NCBI GenBank assembly: GCA_046482545.1
Contig: JAWOEX010000017.1
Coordinates: 1-12,600 of the forward strand
Length of the DNA stretch: 12,600 nucleotides
DNA from: Candidatus Thorarchaeota archaeon
GTDB taxonomy: Archaea; Asgardarchaeota; Thorarchaeia; Thorarchaeales; Thorarchaeaceae
Direction of reading: 5' to 3'
Each line of letters begins with the position of its first letter. Positions within the stretch are counted from its first letter, which is position 1. Of this stretch, positions 1-12,600 are shown piece by piece. The position numbers were made by a program, and so were the translations under genes. The notes beneath the pieces were generated by a model that saw only the letters and a program-made list of their open reading frames with translations, made no database searches and was not told where the DNA came from.

Positions 1-153
1 AGTACCAGAAAAGGCGAATTGGTAGTGAAGACAATAGCCATGTACAGAACATGGTTTTACCGTTCCACAAAGCACAGCTATGAAGGTTTCTAAAGTGAAA
101 ATCAAGACAGAGCTCGATCTATTATTTATGGCCCCTTCAATGCGAAGAACAAT

Positions 154-260
154 TGAGAAATGCTGAGGATGGAGGTACTGCTTTTCTGAGGGTCCGCTCA
201 AATCTTGACAACTCTAGGTGCGCATGAGCTATATTTTCGGTCTGCTTGAAACGCTAATAT
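154..260 (+). repeat. Dispersed ~110-bp direct repeat, copy 1
   Basis: tgagaaatgctgaggatggaggtactgc...ctcaaatcttgacaactctaggtg...atattttcggtctg...cttgaaacgctaatat; aligns by eye with 2681-2793, 5848-5953 and 11039-11148. Confidence 0.95.
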
Positions 261-262
261 AG
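248..262 (+). promoter_or_regulatory. Putative archaeal BRE/TATA promoter at right end of repeat copy 1
   Basis: gaaacgctaatatag: purine-rich BRE-like segment then an AT-rich box; gctaatat ends 38 nt before the TTG at 298. Same motif and spacing in copy 2 (2793 to 2831). Confidence 0.45.
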
Positions 263-297
263 CGATAAGAATGTAGTGTAGGAAAGGGCGAACCTCA

Positions 298-2508
298 TTG
301 ATGCACGGAGTTTACGTTGTAGGAAGGAACGGAGAATTAGTGTACTCAAAGCAGCTTACAGATTCATCATCAAATGAAGAAATAGTAAATCATCTACAGC
401 ATCTGGCCGATTCTCTTCCGACAGAGAGGGAGAAGGGTCAAGTTGAATACAGCGATTTCTTAAATTACAGGGTGTACTATTTTGCTGATTCAGAGTATGT
501 TCTTTTAGTAGTAGCTGACAAAGCAGACGAGAAGAAAATAACCTCTCAGAAGACAAAGATATTCGCGGATACCTTCAGGATGGGCGGCGTTGTATCAGTT
601 TCATCGCATGAGCTTGATAGGCTCATAGATTTCTTGGAAGCACCCCCGTTGAAAGTTGCAGTTATCGGATTCGAAAACCCGAGTCTAGGAAAAGAGGCAT
701 TGTTGAACCTGCTTAGAAGTGAAATTCTGTCCCCTAAGAATGGTACAAGATGGGGAGATACAATTGAGGGGCCCTTATTACAGGAAGAAAACATCAACGT
801 AATTCTCTGGAATTTGGCTGGTCAGTCGCGGTTTAGCATTGTCTGGGGTAAGATGATTGCGAATGCTCAAGTTGTTGTTATTGTCACAGATAGTACCTTT
901 GAGAATGTTTTGAAGAGTAAGAAATTGGTTAGCCTAGCAAAAGAAAAGGTACCCAATGCAAAAATAATCGGTATTGCCAATGAACAAGACCTGTCAACCG
1001 CACTAACACCTGAAAGAATCAGCCATATACTGGATATACCCACATACGGACTCACAGAAATTGATGATTCCCAAGTCGGTCTGCAAGCTACGGAATATCG
1101 AGAGCCTCACCCCATTGCAATAGCGATTCAAGAGCATGATGAACCTTGGCTGGTGATTGGCATTATCAGCAATAGAACAGACTTCAAAGATACGTTCGAG
1201 ATTCAGAAGGCGATTATGGATAGAGCCGATGACATTGCCCATGCCATTCGTGATTCTGAGGATCCATGGGAAATAGTCAGCAATATCAGCGGTTTTGATA
1301 TTCTCAGAGAAAAACAAGAAATTCGTGAAGCAGTCCAGGAAAGGGCATCCAGTATTGCAGAAACTATCAACAAATCTAACCGACCTTGGAAAGTAGTATG
1401 GAAAATCCATTGGTGGAAAGACCTCAGGCAGAACGAGGAAATTCAGCATGCCATCGTGCAAGCCATTGCTGAGTCTAGAGAACCGTGGCGGATAGTTAGG
1501 CGGATAGACAACTGGGAGGCCATACACCAAAACAAGGATATTGGCAAGGCTCTCGCAAGAGCTCTCCATCAGTGTGAGAAACCATGGCGTGTGGTTTCCA
1601 AACTCTACTACCAAGAAGAAATCTGGAATAATCAAGACATTCGGGAAGCTATCTACGATAGAGCTCCCGATATTATCCAAGCCATCGGAAAAGCGGATGC
1701 GGAATGGGAGGAGATCAGTCAACGCTTGAACTGGGCAAAAATCGCTGGGGAAGAACGGACATACGAGGCTTTTGCACGTGCCATACGTGAGTCGGATAGG
1801 CCGTCGCCGGTACTTGAGAGAATCAACCATTGGAGGAATCTAAAGAAAACGTTGGTATTTGGTGAAGTCGATCTTTTAGAGAATCTAAAGACGGATGCGG
1901 ATGTGCAGGAGGCTATTGTGCAAGCCATCCATGAATCTGATGACGCCTTGCAGATTGCGCACGAAATCGGCGATTGGGAAGATGTCATAGGAAATACGGC
2001 CATTCACAAAGCTATTGCAGACGCTCTTCGCGCATCTGACAAACCGTGGCATTTTCTGTTTCGGATTAGTTCCTGTGAAGATCTCAGGAAGAAGGAGCCG
2101 ATTCTTCAGGCCGTTATACAAACCCTTCATGAGACTTCCGAGCCGGCGTGGGTTATTGGTGCTTTGAGTCAGTGGAAAGAGTTTGGAAACACAGAAACGC
2201 TTCGAGAAGCTGCGAAAGGCAGAATCCCTGATATTGCTGAAGAAATTCGTGGACCTAAATATCCAAGTTGGGTTCTCGTTCATATGCGACATTGGGCTGA
2301 TCTTCACAAGCGGGATGATATTGATTACGAAGTCATTGGAAACTGGCGACCAGCAGACATGTTCGAGGAGATTGCAGGTTGTAGGAAGTCCTATTTCTAC
2401 TTCCAAATGCTCATGTCAATCGATTTTATCCGGGAGAACGAACTAATCAAAGACGCCTTCAGAAAACGAGGGTTGTATGATTACTTCTACAAAGGGAGCT
2501 CTAAGTAA
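298..2508 (+). CDS. Longin-like domain + degenerate Arf/Ras-like small GTPase domain + C-terminal alpha-helical repeat protein
   Basis: 736-aa ORF (TTG at 298 or ATG at 301). N-terminus GVYVVGRNGELVYSKQL...YRVYYFADSEYVLLVVAD follows a longin-like pattern (inferred). GTPase scaffold LKVAVIG..GK, LWNLAGQSRF, VVVIVTDST, IGIANEQDL, then about 12 repeats containing AIxES..PW. Confidence 0.85.
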   Translation: MMHGVYVVGRNGELVYSKQLTDSSSNEEIVNHLQHLADSLPTEREKGQVEYSDFLNYRVYYFADSEYVLLVVADKADEKKITSQKTKIFADTFRMGGVVSVSSHELDRLIDFLEAPPLKVAVIGFENPSLGKEALLNLLRSEILSPKNGTRWGDTIEGPLLQEENINVILWNLAGQSRFSIVWGKMIANAQVVVIVTDSTFENVLKSKKLVSLAKEKVPNAKIIGIANEQDLSTALTPERISHILDIPTYGLTEIDDSQVGLQATEYREPHPIAIAIQEHDEPWLVIGIISNRTDFKDTFEIQKAIMDRADDIAHAIRDSEDPWEIVSNISGFDILREKQEIREAVQERASSIAETINKSNRPWKVVWKIHWWKDLRQNEEIQHAIVQAIAESREPWRIVRRIDNWEAIHQNKDIGKALARALHQCEKPWRVVSKLYYQEEIWNNQDIREAIYDRAPDIIQAIGKADAEWEEISQRLNWAKIAGEERTYEAFARAIRESDRPSPVLERINHWRNLKKTLVFGEVDLLENLKTDADVQEAIVQAIHESDDALQIAHEIGDWEDVIGNTAIHKAIADALRASDKPWHFLFRISSCEDLRKKEPILQAVIQTLHETSEPAWVIGALSQWKEFGNTETLREAAKGRIPDIAEEIRGPKYPSWVLVHMRHWADLHKRDDIDYEVIGNWRPADMFEEIAGCRKSYFYFQMLMSIDFIRENELIKDAFRKRGLYDYFYKGSSK
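1114..2505 (+). repeat. Intragenic protein-level tandem repeats, 33-aa unit with 40-aa variants, about 12 copies
   Basis: e.g. IVQAIAESREPWRIVRRIDNWEAIHQNKDIGKA, IADALRASDKPWHFLFRISSCEDLRKKEPILQA, IAETINKSNRPWKVVWKIHWWKDLRQNEEIQHA; longer units add a 7-aa IxDRAxD-like segment. Confidence 0.9.
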
Positions 2509-2680
2509 AAGGGGCCTTACACTTAATGAGAGAGGATAATCTCATGAATTCACCAAATCCCGTGAGAAGAATTATCATGCCTATCAAAAAATGAGTGGCA
2601 AGTTCTAATGGGATGCAGAAGCAATTACATCACAGTGCATCAGCTCTTCTCAAGAATTACAGTGTTAAAACAAAACTAAC

Positions 2681-2793
2681 TGAGAAATGCTGAGTATGGA
2701 GGTATATGTTTTCTGAGGTCTGACCCAAATCTTGGGAACTCCAGGTACTGCACGAGCTACATTTTCGGTCTGGTCGCCTTGAAAGGCTAATAT
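2681..2793 (+). repeat. Dispersed ~110-bp direct repeat, copy 2 (most diverged core)
   Basis: tgagaaatgctgagtatggaggta...cccaaatcttgggaactccaggtactgcacgagctacattttcggtctggtcgccttgaaaggctaatat. Confidence 0.93.
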
Positions 2794-5170: not shown

Positions 5171-5854
5171 ATGGAGTCATCAGAAATAGTATTTCGGGAC
5201 TGGAAAAGGCGAGAAAATCAAGTTCTCAGGCGATATCCATTATTTGTTTTGGCATATTGGATTTTGTTGGTGGCCATATTTTACATTCTCCCCCTTCTTG
5301 AAGGAATTCTGGGGAGCAACTCGTACATTCTCGGTATTTTAATGCTATCCCCATTCCTCTTAATTACATTATCAACCAACATCGTATGGTCTCATGAAGC
5401 GTTCGGAACAGCTGCAAATAGCTCGAATTTCAGGGCCAAAAGAGTGTTGCAAGGGGCGTTGAGTTTGGGTATACTGGGTGCAATGATTGCTTCCATTGGA
5501 CTTGGTATCTTGCCACTCACGCCTTCGTCTATGTACAGTATCCGCCTATATATTCTCGGATTCCTGTCTTTTGCCGTCGTCCTGATACCAGTATTCCTGA
5601 CTACAGCTTTGTTATCTGATAATCCTGCCAGATTCCTGAAGGACTGTGTCAAACCTCCGTTGTCTTGGCTGGTATATCCTTGTATCTGGCTCATCTATGC
5701 TGTTCTGCAGCTGTATGGTTTCTTCTTCTCAATCATGCATCCCATGTTATCAGTTGTCTGGGTTATTCCCATAGCCTTGTTGCTACCAATTCAAGTCATG
5801 ATCTTGCCGTATTTCGCCGCACAATCAAGGTACCAAAACAAACTAGTATGCTGA
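5171..5854 (+). CDS. Hypothetical polytopic membrane protein (about 6 TM)
   Basis: 227-aa ORF with repeated hydrophobic segments, 28 nt downstream of the previous gene; TGA stop lies within repeat copy 3. Confidence 0.8.
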   Translation: MESSEIVFRDWKRRENQVLRRYPLFVLAYWILLVAIFYILPLLEGILGSNSYILGILMLSPFLLITLSTNIVWSHEAFGTAANSSNFRAKRVLQGALSLGILGAMIASIGLGILPLTPSSMYSIRLYILGFLSFAVVLIPVFLTTALLSDNPARFLKDCVKPPLSWLVYPCIWLIYAVLQLYGFFFSIMHPMLSVVWVIPIALLLPIQVMILPYFAAQSRYQNKLVC

Positions 5855-5953
5855 GGATGGAGGTACTGCTTCTGTGAGGTTCCGACTCAAATCTTGACAA
5901 CTCTAGGTGTTGCACGAGTCATATTTTCGGTCCGCTCGCCTCGGACATTAGTA
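5848..5953 (+). repeat. Dispersed ~110-bp direct repeat, copy 3
   Basis: atgctgaggatggaggtactgcttctgtgaggttccgactcaaatcttgacaactctaggtgttgcacgagtcatattttcggtccgctcgcctcggacattagta; shares an exact 33-nt run with copy 4. Confidence 0.95.
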
Positions 5954-6300
5954 TCTATCAAACTAAGGAGGAATAAAGAAGCCAAGTAACGGAGCTAATT
6001 TTGATGACAACACCCGACCCATAAAATATTAATCAGGAGTTGAAAAACCAAAGAAACGACGTAGAAACTAGAAAGATAGAATTCAATGAGTACTTGATTT
6101 CGCAGATAAACTGCATTCAGTACAATTTCGCATTCTATCAATCATCTTCGTAAGCATAGCACATCTTGCCAACGCATTCTCCTGATTCGTATAAAGATAT
6201 ATTAGAGATTACAATAAAGGGTTAATGTGGTTTGGAGAGGCTTGTAAGGCAATTGTGAAGGCATAATTTCCAGCATGTTGATTCACCACGAAGTGACAAT

Positions 6301-6909
6301 ATGAATAAGAGGAATATTGGATTGGTAATTATAGTTCTAGCCGTAGTCCTTTCAATGACCCCACAACTAGTTTTTGCCGGTTCAGGTCAGATGAGCAGTA
6401 ACTATGATGACGGGGGACATTGGGCACAATTTGGGAGTTCTGCACAAGATTGGCCCTACTACGAGAAGGTGGGGGTCTGGTCTCATGGTTTGGGATTCCA
6501 AACCGGCGGTGGTGCGTGGGTTGGTGCAGTCGATGAAGATATATCGGGTAGCCATAGTTTCACAATGACAGCGGATATCAGACTCTATGCATTTGTGGAA
6601 GCAGATGGTATTGGAAGTACGGCGCTGGTAGAAGTGTGGTTTGTGATTCGAGATGCGGATACCAAGAATGAGCTTTGGAAAGCAAAAGTTTGGTCCTTTA
6701 GTAGGATGAATTTTGAGTATTATACGTTTTCCGGGACAATATCGGAGTTGAATCCTTCGAGCTTTTCGATTGATAGTCCCAGTGACGATTACCTATTCTG
6801 TGTGGAGTTTAGAGGATATACATCATTCAATGGTCGTGTCTGTAAGAATGGCGACAAGCCAGATCAAAAGGCAATATTATACGTTGACAAGATAACCTGG
6901 CAGTGGTAA
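6301..6909 (+). CDS. Hypothetical secreted protein, Gly/aromatic-rich, probably beta-rich
   Basis: 202-aa ORF; signal peptide MNKRNIGLVIIVLAVVLSMTPQLVFA; no C-terminal anchor. Confidence 0.85.
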   Translation: MNKRNIGLVIIVLAVVLSMTPQLVFAGSGQMSSNYDDGGHWAQFGSSAQDWPYYEKVGVWSHGLGFQTGGGAWVGAVDEDISGSHSFTMTADIRLYAFVEADGIGSTALVEVWFVIRDADTKNELWKAKVWSFSRMNFEYYTFSGTISELNPSSFSIDSPSDDYLFCVEFRGYTSFNGRVCKNGDKPDQKAILYVDKITWQW

Positions 6910-6975
6910 CGGAAGAACCAAATCCAAATAGATGGGCAAAGTATTGAGGATGAAACAGACAGGTTGAGTTTATCT

Positions 6976-7029
6976 ATCGTGGAATGGAGAGAGGGCACAA
7001 TCTCTCTCGATTCCACGATTTTCTTTTTC
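6976..7029 (+). terminator. Strong hairpin followed by T-tract (intrinsic-terminator-like)
   Basis: atcgtggaat-g-gagagag (6976-6993) / loop ggcacaat / ctctctc-g-attccacgat (7002-7019): 17 bp with one G-G mismatch, then tttctttttc. Confidence 0.75.
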
Positions 7030-7320
7030 AAAAAAGTGGTATATTGAAATTAAAAAGGCACAAGAAATAGAAAATGTAGTCCAAACGAAAAGATAGGAAA
7101 ACATCCCGCAATTCTAAATCGGAAGAATATCCATAATAAAACATTCATGGTGCTATCCAGGTGGAGATACTAAAGCAGATGGTATGGGAACTATGTAATT
7201 ACAGAATTAAAAATGATGGTCATGAGTTGTCTGAAATGAAAATATATGTGTTTGTATCAATATAGAGGCCCAAACTGCTTATTAGTTAGGCACAAAATGA
7301 AAATATGTAGGTGTTGGGTT

Positions 7321-8238
7321 ATGCGAAAAACAACGATATCAGTTCGGAGTTTGGTAAAAATTTTCGTTGATGTAAGAGCTCTTGACAGTATCAATTTAGA
7401 TGTCGAACCCGGGATTTTCGGTCTTATTGGACCAAATGGAGCCGGGAAGACCACACTGCTTCGGGTATTGCTTGGTCTAATCAGGTCGGACGGCGGCACT
7501 GCCAAAGTACTTGGTCTTGACATCGCAGAGAGCTCGCTTGAAATTAGGAGAAGAATCGGCGTCCTTCATGAAAAGCCTGCATATCCCAAGTCGATGCAGG
7601 TGATAGAATATATGAATAAGGTTGCCAGGATTTACCGAAGCAACACATCGGCCGAGGAGCTGCTGACAAACGTTAGTCTTGACTATGCGAAGAATAGAGA
7701 AATCGGTAATCTTTCGGCAGGTATGTATCAGCGACTGGGCATCGCCCAGGCTCTGATTGGTTCTCCCGAACTTGTGTTTCTTGATGAGCCCACATCGAAT
7801 CTGGATGTGACCGGGCGCGATGATATCATGAACCTTATTGTTAATCTTCACAACGAACGTGATATCTCCTTTTTCGTATGTTCCCACATCCTCTCCGACC
7901 TTGAACGGGTCTGCCATCAGGTCGCGTTCATAGATAAGGGGAAGATAATAGAAAAGGGTGACACCAGAGATGTCATCGAGAAGTACACATCGAATACGTT
8001 CCGCATCGTAACCTCAGATGCTGTACGGCTTATCGAAGCTGTCAAACAGATTCCCGGGGTAAAAGAACCCAGAGTATCTGGAGGGAGCTCCATCACCTTT
8101 ACTTTAGAGTTAAGGGGGATTGATGATATTCAGGCAGACATCGAGAATGTTGCAGATCCGTTGGATATCAAGCTCTATGCGGTTGAACAAGCTGGTAATC
8201 TTGAGGTCGCTTTCAAGGAGCTTGCTAAACGTGAGTAA
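7321..8238 (+). CDS. ABC transporter ATP-binding protein (ABC-2 / drug-peptide exporter type)
   Basis: Walker A GPNGAGKTT, signature LSAGMYQRLGIAQAL, Walker B LVFLDEPT, H-loop CSH; start placed at ATG 7321 (ggtg upstream) rather than 7246. Confidence 0.96.
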   Translation: MRKTTISVRSLVKIFVDVRALDSINLDVEPGIFGLIGPNGAGKTTLLRVLLGLIRSDGGTAKVLGLDIAESSLEIRRRIGVLHEKPAYPKSMQVIEYMNKVARIYRSNTSAEELLTNVSLDYAKNREIGNLSAGMYQRLGIAQALIGSPELVFLDEPTSNLDVTGRDDIMNLIVNLHNERDISFFVCSHILSDLERVCHQVAFIDKGKIIEKGDTRDVIEKYTSNTFRIVTSDAVRLIEAVKQIPGVKEPRVSGGSSITFTLELRGIDDIQADIENVADPLDIKLYAVEQAGNLEVAFKELAKRE

Positions 8239-9037
8239 GGAACACGAGAAAGTTCACCCGATAATCGAACTTGAATTCAAGTATACCTATCATTTTCCAA
8301 TCCTCGAAAGCATCGTGGCTATTATGTTGTTTATGGCAGCCAGCAGGGGCATAGCTGTTGGCAACGCGTCTGTGGGGTTAGAGCTCAGTTCAGGTCCCAT
8401 GTGGGATGGCTCTCAACTGATCGAACGATACTACGCATTCTTGGAAGGAGGGGCACTTGCGTACGCCATGGCTCTTTCAAGCTTGGTCTCAGTCTTTGCC
8501 CTGTTGATTCCCGCCTTAACTGCTTTCAGCCTGGCACGAAGCTTCGAAGACGGAACACTGCAGACCCTTCTCAGCTATCCACTAAGCCGCTCTCGTATCC
8601 TCCTGACAAAAGTTGCTATGATACTGCTTCTAACCTGTATTCCTGCTACGGTGCTATCTCTTGCCGCAGTTTACATCTACATCCCTGGCGGAATGCAATT
8701 TCTTCCTTTTCTTGCTCTTAGTGTAGCGTTCTCGGTATTCGTACTTGTCGTAACTTCAGTAGGTATACTGATTTCTCTCATTTCAAAACGGACCATGGCC
8801 AGTGCTGCTTCAGGGATGCTAGGATGGACTGGGGTTCTCGCCATCGTCAATATGGATATCGTTCCGGAGTCGATTAAGAGGGTCATAAACCCAGTAAGAA
8901 TCATTACAGAAGCGATTAGAGGGGAAGCGAACACCCTTCTGACATGGGAGATTGCTGGCTCACTGTTGGGGTCGTTCCTAGTCGGCATAGCAATCCTTGT
9001 TCTGAGCATGCTGGTTTTTGAAAGAATGGAGGTGTAA
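8231..9037 (+). CDS. ABC-2 family permease subunit 1
   Basis: GTG at 8231 overlaps the ATPase 3' end; multiple TM helices; motif ARSFEDGTLQTLLSYPLSRSRILLTK typical of ABC-2 permeases; ends FERMEV. Confidence 0.9.
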   Translation: MSKEHEKVHPIIELEFKYTYHFPILESIVAIMLFMAASRGIAVGNASVGLELSSGPMWDGSQLIERYYAFLEGGALAYAMALSSLVSVFALLIPALTAFSLARSFEDGTLQTLLSYPLSRSRILLTKVAMILLLTCIPATVLSLAAVYIYIPGGMQFLPFLALSVAFSVFVLVVTSVGILISLISKRTMASAASGMLGWTGVLAIVNMDIVPESIKRVINPVRIITEAIRGEANTLLTWEIAGSLLGSFLVGIAILVLSMLVFERMEV

Positions 9038-9039
9038 CG

Positions 9040-9564
9040 ATGGTGTCCATGCAAACCCGTGCAGGCTGGCTCATGGTAACTCTTGGCATAACCTTGCTCC
9101 TTGTCTCCTTTCTGGGGGCTGGCAGTTTCGGGCTCCATGCTTCCATAGATAGTGGGATGTACAAAGGATACCTTTTCAGAACGACTGATGCTATCTATGT
9201 ACAGGCGGAAGGGGACACCAACGAGTGCTTCTCTCTCTACATTCTTGACTCGGAGGATACTCTGATCGTTCTTGAAAATGGCTCTTTGGAACAGACAAGT
9301 CCTGTTGCCATGATGGAAAACATCACCCACTACAACGGCCGTGTTGAGCTTCCATCACCGGGGGTCTACACGATCCTTGTCACTCCATCTCAAAATAACA
9401 CAATCAGCGTCAATATAGACATCCAGAGAACAAACCCACACATGAACGCTCTAATCCCTGGTATTTTGTTCGTTGCTGGGGGTGCGATATTCTCCTACAT
9501 ACCAAGAAGAGCTGATAGGATTGAGGAGACACCTAGAGTTGAATCGACAGGAAATACAACATAG
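9040..9564 (+). CDS. Two-TM accessory membrane protein 1 with an extracellular, probably beta-sandwich, domain
   Basis: 174 aa, N- and C-terminal hydrophobic helices, 2 nt after permease stop; paralogous to 10424..10930. Confidence 0.82.
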   Translation: MVSMQTRAGWLMVTLGITLLLVSFLGAGSFGLHASIDSGMYKGYLFRTTDAIYVQAEGDTNECFSLYILDSEDTLIVLENGSLEQTSPVAMMENITHYNGRVELPSPGVYTILVTPSQNNTISVNIDIQRTNPHMNALIPGILFVAGGAIFSYIPRRADRIEETPRVESTGNTT

Positions 9565-9602
9565 CATTATCGGAAAAACAGGAGAACCCCCAGTGAGGAG
9601 AG

Positions 9603-10421
9603 ATGTGTAATATGAAGCGACCACCTGAAAACCTGCGAGAAATCTGGGAGCTGGAATTCAACCAGTTCTATTCGTTTCCGGTTGTTGAGGGAATAGTTGC
9701 GATTTTCCTTGCCATTGCATTCGCCAGTACCATTGGAATATTTGGAAGCCATATGGGGGTGTATATCGAACCGGGGCCAACATGGAATGGTACGGCAGTA
9801 ATTGAATCTGTTTCCGAATATAGACGGACGGTTACAGCATCAGCGTATGCATCATCAGCTCTTGGTTTCGCCCAGATCCTAGCTTTCCTTATCCCGCTGT
9901 TCCTAGCATCCACTCTGGCAGGACGTTTTGAAGATGGCACGCTGCAAACATATTTGTCCTATCCCATTCAACGTTCCACCCTATTGATGGTCAAGGTCTC
10001 CGGGGTCATTGTTGTACTGGGAACAGTTGCAACGTTCGCTTCGCTTTCGATGATATTCCTGTTCATTCCTGGCAGCAAAGATGCCTTTTCCATATTGCTT
10101 GTAACATCTGCACTATGGGCGTTTATCATACTCCTTACGTCAGGAACCACGCTGATATCAATCGCGACCAGAAGTGGTGCTGCCACTGCAATCATAGGAA
10201 TTATCCTCTGGTACGCCGCACAAATGATTGCTGGTTCGCAGGCCACACCAAGCACAGTACGGGCTGTCCTCAACCCAATATCCCTAGCGAGTAGCTATGT
10301 CGCAGGAGGACTCGTAGTACCACAGATTACAGAGGTGTACGTCGGCATAGTCGGCGCGATGGTTGTTGGCGTCCTTGCCTTGACGGCAAGTGTCTTTCTA
10401 TTTGAGAAGGTGGAGATCTGA
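9603..10421 (+). CDS. ABC-2 family permease subunit 2
   Basis: Motif AGRFEDGTLQTYLSYPIQRSTLLMVK; ends FEKVEI; gtgaggag upstream; start may be 9612. Confidence 0.9.
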   Translation: MCNMKRPPENLREIWELEFNQFYSFPVVEGIVAIFLAIAFASTIGIFGSHMGVYIEPGPTWNGTAVIESVSEYRRTVTASAYASSALGFAQILAFLIPLFLASTLAGRFEDGTLQTYLSYPIQRSTLLMVKVSGVIVVLGTVATFASLSMIFLFIPGSKDAFSILLVTSALWAFIILLTSGTTLISIATRSGAATAIIGIILWYAAQMIAGSQATPSTVRAVLNPISLASSYVAGGLVVPQITEVYVGIVGAMVVGVLALTASVFLFEKVEI

Positions 10422-10423
10422 GG

Positions 10424-10930
10424 ATGGCGTCAGCTGCAGGAAGAATAACCAAACTGGTGACGATGATTGGAATCACCTTCTTGCTAGTCTCGTTCATCCC
10501 ATCCGGAAGTTTTGGTCCAGGTAGCTTTGTCGACTATGGTACTTACGAGGGGACAGTTTTCGGAGCCGTTGGAAATATTCACGTAAACATCTCGACCTAC
10601 AATAGCAGTGGACTTCAAGTCTATGTATTGGACTATGACGATTTGACGTCCGCATTGGAAAATGGATCTCTGGAAGGGACTGACCCACTTATGTCGATTG
10701 AAGTGCTCTCGAATTACTCCGGCATAATCGAGATTCCTCACCCCGGATTATATGCCATTCTGTTCACCCCCACATATAACGAGACTGTTTATTGGGACGT
10801 TCAAATCAGTAGGCCGCTCCCTCACACCGGTGCTTTTCATGTTGGGCTAGTTGTTACTGCATTAGGAATCGCGGGGATGATATTGCTGAAAGTGGAAGGA
10901 CATCTTCGTATTCCTGATTTGCAAAGATGA
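10424..10930 (+). CDS. Two-TM accessory membrane protein 2
   Basis: 168 aa; IGITFLLVSFIPSGSFG, LENGSLEGTDP and EIPHPGLYAILFTP match 9040..9564; 2 nt after permease stop. Confidence 0.82.
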   Translation: MASAAGRITKLVTMIGITFLLVSFIPSGSFGPGSFVDYGTYEGTVFGAVGNIHVNISTYNSSGLQVYVLDYDDLTSALENGSLEGTDPLMSIEVLSNYSGIIEIPHPGLYAILFTPTYNETVYWDVQISRPLPHTGAFHVGLVVTALGIAGMILLKVEGHLRIPDLQR

Positions 10931-11038
10931 TCTGTGAGTGCACCCAGGATACCGCCACTAATGCTAAGTAGCAGAGTTACGTATATGGCATACTGTCTTT
11001 TTCACAAAGCTACACTATCGAAAACAAAGCAAAATGAG

Positions 11039-11148
11039 TGAGAAATGCTGAAGATGGAGGTACTGCTTCTTGAGGTTCCGCTCAAATCTTGACAACTCTA
11101 GGTGTTGCACGAGCTACATTTTCGGTCTGCTCGCCTTGGACAGTAGTA
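11039..11148 (+). repeat. Dispersed ~110-bp direct repeat, copy 4
   Basis: tgagaaatgctgaagatggaggtactgcttcttgaggttccgctcaaatcttgacaactctaggtgttgcacgagctacattttcggtctgctcgccttggacagtagta; lies between convergent genes. Confidence 0.95.
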
Positions 11149-11183
11149 GCGGTGAGCTGAACACCTCGCCGGAGCTCGGGCTA

Positions 11184-12053
11184 TCATCGCTTCTTGACAT
11201 AGACAACCATAATGACCACCACTGCTCCTATTGCGGTACCAATCCCAAGAGCATGCAGCGGATGTATGCCCACAGGGGTGGTTGTTTCTGTGGTTGTTGT
11301 CGTGGTGGGATTAGCTCCGCATGGTGGCGGTGGAAGATGTTCAATTGCAACGATTGTGCCATCGAGTGAGATAGACATGATACAAAGAAGCTGTGCGAGA
11401 GAGTAAACAGGTTCGGTTGGGGATGGGTAGCATGCTATAGTGGTATTGATTTTCAAGGTTAATTCCCAGTGAGATTCATTCAGTAACACACTCGCATTAT
11501 CATGCTCGAATTCTGAAATCCCGATATCCCCCATCGCCAGAGAGTCACCAGTATAGCTGCGGTCCCACAGGAAGGGAATCAGGAGGTTATCCTCGCTGAA
11601 GGGCCTGAAACAGAAGTCTGATGATTCATTGAAAGCAAGAAGCGAGGCAATCCCGGTCTTCAGCGATTCTCGCAAATACGAACTTGAGTTGACATTAAGA
11701 TTCACGATAGTATCGAACTCACCCGTCCAATTGAACAGGAGCTGAGTGAAGTGGGTGCTGTTGAGACCTGAAAAGGCCCCATAGCCATTCAAGTTCGTGT
11801 CTAGACCGAAGAGCAATGAGTCGTTGAAAGCGTCCACGATTGGTTGATATTCATCCCAGTTTTCGGCTTGAAGTATGTAGCGTCCGAGCCCTCGACTATT
11901 CAGGTCCCAGCCGTTGAAGGTGATGGTGTTTTCTCCGACCACTAGCGTTGCGGAATTGGAAGTTGGTAGTTGGTTCGCTACTGCAGTTGTAGCCCCGAGT
12001 GACAGAACCAAGAATAGCACAAATAGGCTTATTGTGGTTCGATTCAGCTTCAT
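11184..12053 (-). CDS. C-terminally anchored cell-surface (glyco)protein
   Basis: Start placed at MKLNRTTISLFVLFLVLSLGATTAVA (signal peptide); many N-x-S/T sequons; PPPPCGANPTTTTTETTTP linker; C-terminal TM + KKR; tandem TGA TAG stops. Confidence 0.85.
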   Translation of the reverse strand: MKLNRTTISLFVLFLVLSLGATTAVANQLPTSNSATLVVGENTITFNGWDLNSRGLGRYILQAENWDEYQPIVDAFNDSLLFGLDTNLNGYGAFSGLNSTHFTQLLFNWTGEFDTIVNLNVNSSSYLRESLKTGIASLLAFNESSDFCFRPFSEDNLLIPFLWDRSYTGDSLAMGDIGISEFEHDNASVLLNESHWELTLKINTTIACYPSPTEPVYSLAQLLCIMSISLDGTIVAIEHLPPPPCGANPTTTTTTETTTPVGIHPLHALGIGTAIGAVVVIMVVYVKKR

Positions 12054-12078
12054 TTGTCTTGGTATCCCCATTATTTGC

Positions 12079-12600
12079 TCAATAATTGTTGCTCCCATCA
12101 TAATTGACGCGATGCTCGAAATCCCAATAATAGTGTAATCTTCCATCATATTCTAATTTGTCGTAATCATCATCGGAGTAATTTGCATCATCACCCTCAG
12201 CCATAATTTTTAGTGTATTCCAAGAAATGCCAACATTCTGATAGCACTGAGGATTATCGGTCACATCCCAAGTGGGATCTGCATGAATCCAGTCATAACC
12301 ATCCCAAAACTCAGCCCAAGCATGACCTTTGGAGTGTCCAGTAGTGTTAACACCAGAGGCGTATATGTATCTTGCAGGAATGCCGACAGAACGACAAAAC
12401 GATACAAAAACAATTGCGAATTCATCGCATACACCTTCCCAACCACGGTCTCTGGAATATTTGTCCGCATTGGTTGTATAAAGTGTGTATGAATCATCAA
12501 CAGGGGTCATCAGGTTATTTACACCTCCATTTAGGAATCGACCCACATCAGGAGGGAAAAAGTAATCGAAGTCATCGATGATTATTGCAGCTTGATAGTA
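12079..12600 (-). CDS. Transglutaminase-like (Cys-His-Asp) domain protein, 5' end outside the window
   Basis: GVCDEFAIVFVSFCRSVGIPARY, GHAWAEFW, WIHADPTW; the frame is open to the window edge (YYQAAIIIDDFDYFFPPDVGRF...). Confidence 0.92.
   Translation of the reverse strand, partial: YYQAAIIIDDFDYFFPPDVGRFLNGGVNNLMTPVDDSYTLYTTNADKYSRDRGWEGVCDEFAIVFVSFCRSVGIPARYIYASGVNTTGHSKGHAWAEFWDGYDWIHADPTWDVTDNPQCYQNVGISWNTLKIMAEGDDANYSDDDYDKLEYDGRLHYYWDFEHRVNYDGSNNY

Follow-up and report, generated by a model that had tools for sequence, protein, structure and literature searches.

The window analysed here is a 12,600-nt stretch of DNA from a Candidatus Thorarchaeota archaeon, and it makes up the whole of contig C17 of a 3.05-Mb genome (G000; 98.9% complete). 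Near its left end lies a gene for a protein, P0001, in which a longin domain, an Arf-like G domain and an alpha-solenoid are joined in one chain (Table 1). This fusion is a recent, genus-limited chimera carried on a mobile cassette, and combines a copy of the host's own longin-GTPase with a helical-repeat domain of Thorarchaeota. Its nucleotide-binding motifs are broken, and direct repeats of the 23S rRNA 3' end border the gene on both sides; these two features were absent from the initial annotation of this DNA.

The N-terminal half descends from a parental core gene that the genome still carries (G000:C20:74563-75438). This gene lies on a core contig, overlaps a conserved upstream gene (C20:73448-74572), with a coiled-coil protein encoded downstream, and encodes a 291-aa longin-GTPase with intact G1-G4 motifs, which has 463 clusters of relatives and whose best sequence matches in the PDB are Arl1, Arf1 and Asgard ArfR. 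Residues 1-255 of the fusion are 49% identical to this protein. The core gene was found as a single copy in 68 of the 85 other genomes of the family, and a second copy occurs only in the three genomes of this genus (of 86). Two of these three, or 2 of the 86 family genomes, have the three-part fusion, whereas the third (G001) has a copy that is free of the repeats. In a maximum-likelihood tree, the cassette copies and the core genes of the genus fall together on one side of a branch with support of 100/96, inside the family. Two of the three modules therefore came as one unit, because the longin-GTPase pair derives from the core gene. This ancestry, together with the restriction of the fusion to two genomes of one genus, bears out one of the two readings offered in the initial annotation, a recent domain shuffle.

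Longin-small-GTPase fusions of the Rag/Arf-like class have already been described in Asgard archaea (Tran et al., 2024, PMC10933270), as have longin-bearing AArfs (Zhu et al., 2025, PMC11914678). The Arf family and ArfR are defined by an N-terminal amphipathic helix before the G domain (Vargova et al., bioRxiv 2024.02.28.582541, on ArfL and ArfR). This helix is absent in both the fusion and its parent, and the longin domain sits in its place.

The repeat-less copy of G001 (L068:6422-7186 on G001:C84) encodes 254 aa and ends right after strand beta6. It retains the GKT and NKQD motifs, has lost G2 and DxxG, and has no close relatives in the protein search; it may be either a precursor of the fusion or a truncation. 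The same G domain is also found in another family of about 680-700 aa (P0003-P0005; one locus, L100:4017-6068), where it is captured between unrelated N- and C-terminal regions. Switch I is eroded in two of these three proteins, and rRNA-tail repeats are lacking at the one locus seen. A scan of metagenome contigs for further fusions confirmed none.

Several lines of evidence indicate that the reading frame is genuine. Single Logan contigs from two DNA runs, which are possibly the window's own source, span the whole open reading frame (ORF) with zero differing letters and flat depth. An independent genome (GCA_018335335.1; G002) encodes a colinear, gap-free homologue, P0002, which is 78% identical to P0001. 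Misassembly of the ORF was ruled out on these two grounds. Neither P0001 nor P0002 contains a frameshift or an internal stop, and the closest named relative of the gene carries a Thorarchaeota annotation. The sequence of P0001 has no evident signal peptide or membrane segment. Short RNA contigs of 100% identity from two metatranscriptome studies cover the longin domain, the junction and the repeats, and one of them crosses the end of the G domain into the linker; these weakly hint at transcription of the fusion, and DNA carry-over is possible.

The initial annotation had recognised longin-like, Arf-like and alpha-solenoid-like modules in one polypeptide, and the presence of all three in a single chain is confirmed. 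AF2 models were made separately for the longin domain and the solenoid. The model of the N-terminal domain, annotated as longin-like over about 115 residues, has a strand hairpin, a helix, three strands and two helices (pLDDT 76.8), which is the longin order, and has no N-terminal helix. In a VIA structure search its top match is Sec22b (Z 12.9; root-mean-square deviation [rmsd] 2.5; 113 residues aligned). Vamp7 and the AP sigma/mu subunits follow within 1 Z unit of Sec22b, and TRAPP and delta-COP score 11.7-11.8, with identities of 8-14% among these matches, whereas roadblock folds score 10.3 or less. As modelled, residues 1-115 thus form a longin domain, with no specific tie to adaptor longins over those of SNAREs or TRAPP. 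Residues 116-255 (nucleotides 646-1065; annotated as a small-GTPase scaffold at about 649-1065) match Pfam Arf with an E value of 1.9e-9 (37.7 bits against a cut-off of 22.3) and PDB sequences by phmmer at 8.8e-9. As for the repeats, their 33/40-aa tandem character stands and their number is corrected: instead of about 12 amphipathic repeats there are 11 units (residues 272-678), each of 33/34 or 39/40 aa except for one of 48, followed by a capping unit. The AF2 model of this region is an all-helical solenoid with three helices per unit (pLDDT 88.6; pTM 0.83). A plain self-BLAST of P0001 gave no off-diagonal match; nevertheless, the periodicity is not due to chance, because 41 other representatives of 50%-identity clusters match the repeat region, mostly in several stretches, with E values down to 1e-46.

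These 41 relatives were retrieved from 1.84 billion representatives. They consist of 23 stand-alone proteins, 8 with an N-terminal P-loop NTPase that shows weak nSTAND matches in Pfam, and 10 with other N-termini; a longin or a GTPase is present in none of the 41. Named members of the family come from metagenome-assembled genomes labelled as Thorarchaeota or Lokiarchaeota. In genome searches the repeat family was found in 15 of 36 genomes of the same archaeal family and in 0 of 24 outside it. The repeats are thus a promiscuous, lineage-specific module that is unnamed in Pfam and so far comes only from Thorarchaeota-type genomes. The eight STAND-like NTPases of Thorarchaeota type (P0010, P0013, P0016, P0018, P0023, P0038, P0044 and P0045) have varied N-termini and carry the repeat at the C-terminus, and are candidates for NLR-like receptors.

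The solenoid has no Pfam match, its sequence profile has no match in the PDB, Foldseek gave no PDB match at E <= 0.001, and a feature search of the ESM Atlas with the repeats returned nothing usable. The list of VIA matches is flat, with RNA-binding solenoids on top and beta- and alpha-adaptin at ranks 5-7 (Z about 9; rmsd 6.5-7.4). These adaptin scores fall under the background of about 13 Z that VIA states for helical repeats. A structure atlas placed the solenoid at a TM score of 0.58 to a generic HEAT/GCN1-like cluster. Adaptin trunks are built of two-helix HEAT repeats, whereas the units of the fusion have three helices. The solenoid is therefore a real one according to the model, and neither sequence nor a specific structural match supports homology of its repeats to adaptins, which the initial annotation had described as not shown.

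The nucleotide-binding motifs of the G domain are broken in both fusion copies. Two extra residues interrupt G1, whose Thr is replaced by Glu in P0001 and by Lys in P0002. The switch I Thr motif of G2 is gone. The G3 Asp is changed to Asn in P0001 (D171N) and retained in P0002, whereas the G4 Lys is changed to Glu in both (K228E). In total, 75 of 165 near-invariant columns are altered in the fusion, 6 of them being merely absent past the junction. As judged from sequence, the domain would be a pseudo-GTPase that has probably lost GTP binding.

Selection has acted unevenly along the protein. Between P0001 and P0002 the ratio of nonsynonymous to synonymous substitution rates (dN/dS) is 1.19 from the P-loop to switch I, which is neutral, and 0.22 (p 1e-4) from switch II to alpha4, which indicates purifying selection. 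The repeats are likewise under purifying selection (0.38 and 0.29; p 4e-4 and 2e-9). With constraint on both segments and the fusion present in two genomes, it is neither unique nor devoid of purifying selection. Compared with the core gene, the switch II-alpha4 segment is about 90% identical over most of its length, including charged stretches, and the proportion of nonsynonymous differences (pN) is 0.08 at a synonymous proportion (pS) of 0.75. Because synonymous sites are saturated at this pS, the segment must have been kept by selection; recent gene conversion was ruled out as its source on the same ground. In the G001 copy and the three unrelated fusions P0003-P0005, too, this segment is the best preserved.

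The fusion gene lies between direct repeats, in which Rfam recognises, in reverse complement, the terminal bases of the 23S rRNA gene and its trailer. About 32 such orphan tails are present in G000 on seven contigs, which are chained by end overlaps. Their start points vary (-59 to +49), and most stop at +80, inside the stretch that pairs with the 5' leader. Tail copies follow the 23S gene itself on one contig in G001 and G005. In G002 the fusion gene is likewise found between two 23S tails, with other neighbours, and DNA homology extends from inside the left tail to the 3' end of the gene. The repeat-less copy of G001 is also located between tails, and its left junction and TATA-like element are the same as those of the fusion cassette. 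The synonymous divergence (dS) of the cassette is 0.30, against 1.28 for the core gene in the same two genomes, and this much lower value indicates transfer between species. One-orientation direct repeats and cassettes that occur in different species at higher identity than core genes are both observed, as in additive islands at the 3' ends of stable-RNA genes. Along the gene (window 301-2505 compared with L010), dS between the two fusion copies climbs from 5' to 3' (0.06, 0.15, 0.36, 0.28, 0.49 and 0.41), as if the part adjoining the left tail had been exchanged more recently.

Table 1. Features of the fusion gene and its cassette in the window.
Feature	Position	Strand	Remarks
Orphan copy of 23S rRNA 3' end and trailer, left cassette boundary	143..271	-	Processing-stem strand; 160-246 correspond to -7 to +80, counted from the end of 23S; G002 and G001 share this junction
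TATA-like element, putative own promoter	247..262	+	About 40 nt upstream of the start; kept in all three cassette versions
Fusion ORF P0001, 735 aa	301..2508	+	Uninterrupted; start ATG at 301, in-frame TTG at 298 as alternative start
Longin domain, aa 1-115	301..645	+	About 30% identical to the core-gene longin; second helix shortened
G domain, P-loop to switch I, aa 116-168	646..804	+	G1 with a 2-residue insertion and GKE in place of GKT; no G2 Thr motif
G domain, switch II to alpha4, aa 169-250	805..1050	+	Altered G3 and G4
Fusion junction	1051..1113	+	Linker into repeat 1 in place of the parent's G5 and helix alpha5
Eleven three-helix 33/40-aa repeats, alpha-solenoid	1114..2334	+	Pro-Trp motif
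C-terminal capping unit	2335..2505	+	End motif common to stand-alone and STAND-fused relatives
Orphan 23S tail, right cassette boundary	2670..2785	-	2687-2779 correspond to -12 to +80
Third orphan 23S tail	5834..5968	-	5848-5953 correspond to -24 to +80
Fourth orphan 23S tail	11030..11179	-	11045-11179 correspond to -55 to +80

The origin of the fusion is very probably explained by duplication of the core gene into a cassette of the 23S island, loss of motifs, joining of the repeat domain and movement of the cassette between species. The single-copy longin-GTPase gene would have been duplicated, in one genus of Thorarchaeota, into one of the cassettes that make up the accessory island downstream of the 23S rRNA gene. 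The duplicated copy would then have lost its nucleotide-binding machinery and the end of its G domain, and in two species it would have been fused to the mobile helical-repeat domain. Movement of the cassette between species most likely took place by homologous recombination via the flanking rRNA-tail repeats. As to the mechanism, the fusion may act not as a GTP switch but as a nucleotide-independent cytosolic binder, that is, as a constitutive adaptor or a competitive modulator of the longin-GTPase circuit. Contact with the putative partner of the parent GTPase would be maintained through the surviving switch II-alpha4 face, possibly together with the longin domain, while the solenoid would provide a new ligand-binding arm. 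The chances of this mechanism are evenly balanced, and the explanation as a whole, origin and mechanism combined, is put forward as moderately probable. A complex prediction for the longin-G part of the fusion and the product of the gene that immediately precedes the core gene gave a score of 0.03, which counts neither way.

Some points weigh against this explanation. The binding partner that it invokes is itself a putative one. The selection estimates come from one sequence pair, P0001 and P0002, in which the longin domain (dN/dS 0.72) and the tail (0.75) show no significant constraint. The switch II-alpha4 segment is also the folding core of the G domain, so its conservation need not imply a binding surface, and the packing of the G domain without alpha5 lies beyond the two domain models made. 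The cassette copies are on long branches, and their placement in the tree could partly be due to attraction. Furthermore, the G000 assembly breaks the island up into short contigs and lacks a physical link between it and the 23S gene.

The same data allow the solenoid to be regarded as the functional unit, like its stand-alone relatives, with the longin-G half kept only enough to fold; this half would be a carry-over from an already expressed cassette, downstream of which the repeat gene inserted in frame. Such a passenger role for the N-terminus fits the 23 stand-alone proteins among the 41 relatives, the insignificant constraint on the longin and P-loop half, and the existence of a repeat-less version with the same left junction and promoter-like element. 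It is rather unlikely, as the switch II-alpha4 segment has been preserved at saturated synonymous sites while the equally structural beta1-alpha1 half drifts, and as both fusion copies have remained free of frameshifts and internal stops. A more doubtful possibility is that the island captures host genes to make new proteins and that the dead GTPase copy serves as an integrated decoy on a STAND-type repeat domain, an antiviral guard of a eukaryote-like GTPase circuit. Here the dead copy would bait a viral protein, and the repeats would capture or report the intruder, as in plant NLR integrated domains. A catalytically dead host copy with a conserved surface is the pattern of a decoy. The 8 relatives in which the repeats follow a P-loop NTPase that weakly matches nSTAND, and the toxin-antitoxin-like, DUF4268 and DprA cassettes in the island, would also suit this role, and the differences between P0001 and P0002 show some clustering at a handful of positions within the repeat (in 5-7 of the 11 units; small numbers). 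However, no STAND module, effector domain or partner gene for the repeat family was found in the cassette or elsewhere in G000, no positive selection was detected, the two repeat relatives that were inspected sit among housekeeping genes, and the neighbours in the window are mostly membrane, secreted or ABC genes. PADLOC gave no meaningful match; a single, marginal and partial dGTPase match of P0001 (E 9e-4) was dismissed.

Two further readings have little left in their favour. An atypical but active GTPase switch that controls its own solenoid, as in Roco proteins, is very improbable: the P-loop Gly-Lys, the switch II Gln and the G4 Asn/Asp do survive, and P0002 keeps the G3 Asp, but Glu or Lys stands in place of the Mg-binding Thr of G1, switch I has lost its Thr motif, the G4 Lys is Glu in both copies, G5 and alpha5 are replaced, and the stretch from the P-loop to switch I is neutral. 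The initial annotation had also proposed that the fusion parallels the architecture of AP/COPI adaptors. A related reading takes the longin subunit, Arf switch and adaptin-like trunk in a single chain as a forerunner or homologue of these adaptors. AP sigma/mu and zeta/delta-COP are indeed among the top longin matches, and adaptins appear at ranks 5-7 of the solenoid search. Nevertheless, the longin matches are tied with those of other classes, the adaptin scores lie below the helical-repeat background and below unrelated RNA-binding solenoids, Foldseek (E <= 0.001) and the PDB profile give no match, and the G domain is motif-dead, is not preceded by an amphipathic helix and is followed by three-helix repeats. 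The longin and the GTPase came together from the core gene, none of the 41 solenoid relatives has a longin or a GTPase, 2 of the 86 genomes of the family have the fusion, which is younger than the divergence of the genus, and the repeats occur in 0 of 24 genomes outside the family. The parallel is not supported, and distribution and ancestry effectively refute the forerunner reading.

The island that carries the cassette has further features. Besides the window, orphan tails are present on contigs C32, C13, C18, C19, C45 and C31 and at the end of C2, and they delimit about 75 kb of accessory DNA; the most decayed-looking copies are at the end of C32, adjoining core genes. Genomes G003, G004, G005, G016, G031 and G032 have at least three tail matches each. 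Searches for tyrosine and serine recombinases, reverse transcriptases and IS110 transposases (PF00589, PF00239, PF00078 and PF02371) gave 0 matches in G000, G001 and G002, which are 96-99% complete; other enzymes, or an integrase acting in trans, are possible sources of mobility. PF00589 is present in 16 of 41 genomes of the family and in 14 of 14 control genomes. The tail repeats are not attC sites, as they contain no R boxes (RYYYAAC...GTTRRRY) and their folding z values are -0.2 to 1.0 on both strands of four copies; their assignment to tRNA fragments or to a separate Rfam RNA was also rejected. Island genes are not co-oriented (32 versus 33). The one joint in assembled contigs that skips across the cassette, between positions 180 and 2714, was not counted as cassette excision; one of its sides is 24 nt, and it is explained by other repeat copies. 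In a literature search mostly excluding subscription papers, no description was found of this fusion or of 23S-tail arrays in Asgard archaea.

Other cassettes are recognisable in the window and beyond it. The cassette at 5970-11030 encodes a secreted 202-aa protein, an ABC ATPase and two pairs of a permease and a small membrane protein; its DNA is 92-94% identical in G001, where it is whole, and in G002, where the gene for the 202-aa protein is missing, and in both it lies between tails with different neighbours. A membrane-protein ORF at 5171-5854 runs into the left edge of an rRNA-tail repeat, which supplies its stop codon. Positions 11184-12600 and the start of C13 together form a two-gene cassette for a transglutaminase-like and a membrane-anchored protein, and a related cassette is present in G001. 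Also on C13 (L005:4920-6627), DprA and a phosphoribosyltransferase-like gene, probably of ComF type, form one cassette, which could bear on DNA uptake and recombination. A second array, consisting of six partial copies of the region just past the 16S rRNA 3' end, is found at G000:C2:13666-32912, on the contig that ends with the 23S gene, and one further partial copy is on C9. The 23S gene of G000 (L004:8562-11865) is about 3300 nt long compared with about 3080-3100 nt in three relatives, which suggests an insertion of about 200 nt.

These results have several implications. The three adaptor-like folds in one Asgard chain result here from a recent shuffle and are uninformative on coat ancestry, which calls for caution in screens for eukaryotic signatures that rely on domain content. 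The fusion is a rare traceable case of Asgard archaea building new architectures from signature domains, in that three sister genomes between them preserve the core gene and its cassette copies, both without the repeats and fused to them, while the cassette moves between species. Cargo taken from the host's core genome bears on the open question of where gene cassettes originate. The split selection over the G domain points to a candidate partner-binding face of a conserved, uncharacterised GTPase of Thorarchaeota. If the decoy reading were true, the fusion would be an archaeal counterpart of plant NLR integrated domains.

Compared with known proteins, the fusion most directly resembles the longin-small-GTPase fusions of Asgard archaea, in which an N-terminal longin directly precedes an Arf-like G domain; the parent gene encodes exactly such a protein. 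Unlike these, P0001 has broken motifs, a replaced alpha5 and an added solenoid of 470 aa, and is a second copy on a mobile cassette. AP-1 to AP-5 and COPI-F with Arf1 similarly include a longin fold, an Arf-like domain and an alpha-solenoid, but distribute them over separate chains, in which Arf is active and inserts into membranes and the trunks are of HEAT type, whereas the fusion combines a dead G domain and three-helix repeats in a single chain, and is recent and confined to one genus. STAND NTPases with repeat sensors (Avs/NLR) are similar in that the repeat family is C-terminal to P-loop NTPases in 8 relatives, and NLR integrated decoys in that a repeat domain is joined to a host protein's dead duplicate; P0001 differs from these receptors in having neither a STAND module nor an effector domain. 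AAGAB, a pseudo-GTPase that binds AP sigma longins according to the title of PDB entry 9ddt, resembles the fusion in having a small-GTPase fold without catalytic motifs; its origin is independent, and no homology past the common fold is claimed.

The island can be compared with two classes of cassette array. Integrons and clusters of attC sites lacking integron-integrases (CALINs), which have been reported in Archaea (Ghaly et al., 2022, PMC9668308), likewise form long, repeat-delimited arrays; their cassettes are small and include toxin-antitoxin-like cargo, and no integrase lies next to them. They differ from the 23S-tail array in that the repeats of the latter are not attC, with no R boxes and no hairpin above shuffled sequences, and in that its genes are not co-oriented. 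The closest described system is that of additive flexible genomic islands at the 3' ends of tRNA and tmRNA genes (Lopez-Perez and Rodriguez-Valera, 2016, PMC4898812). In both systems, cassettes are stacked behind a stable-RNA gene, a portion of which recurs as a direct repeat at every cassette, and identity between species is high. In the Thorarchaeota island, unlike these, no integrase was found in the genome, the anchor is the 3' end of the 23S gene with a strand of the processing stem, the repeat is present in about 32 copies with variable 5' edges, and the cargo comes from the host's own core gene.

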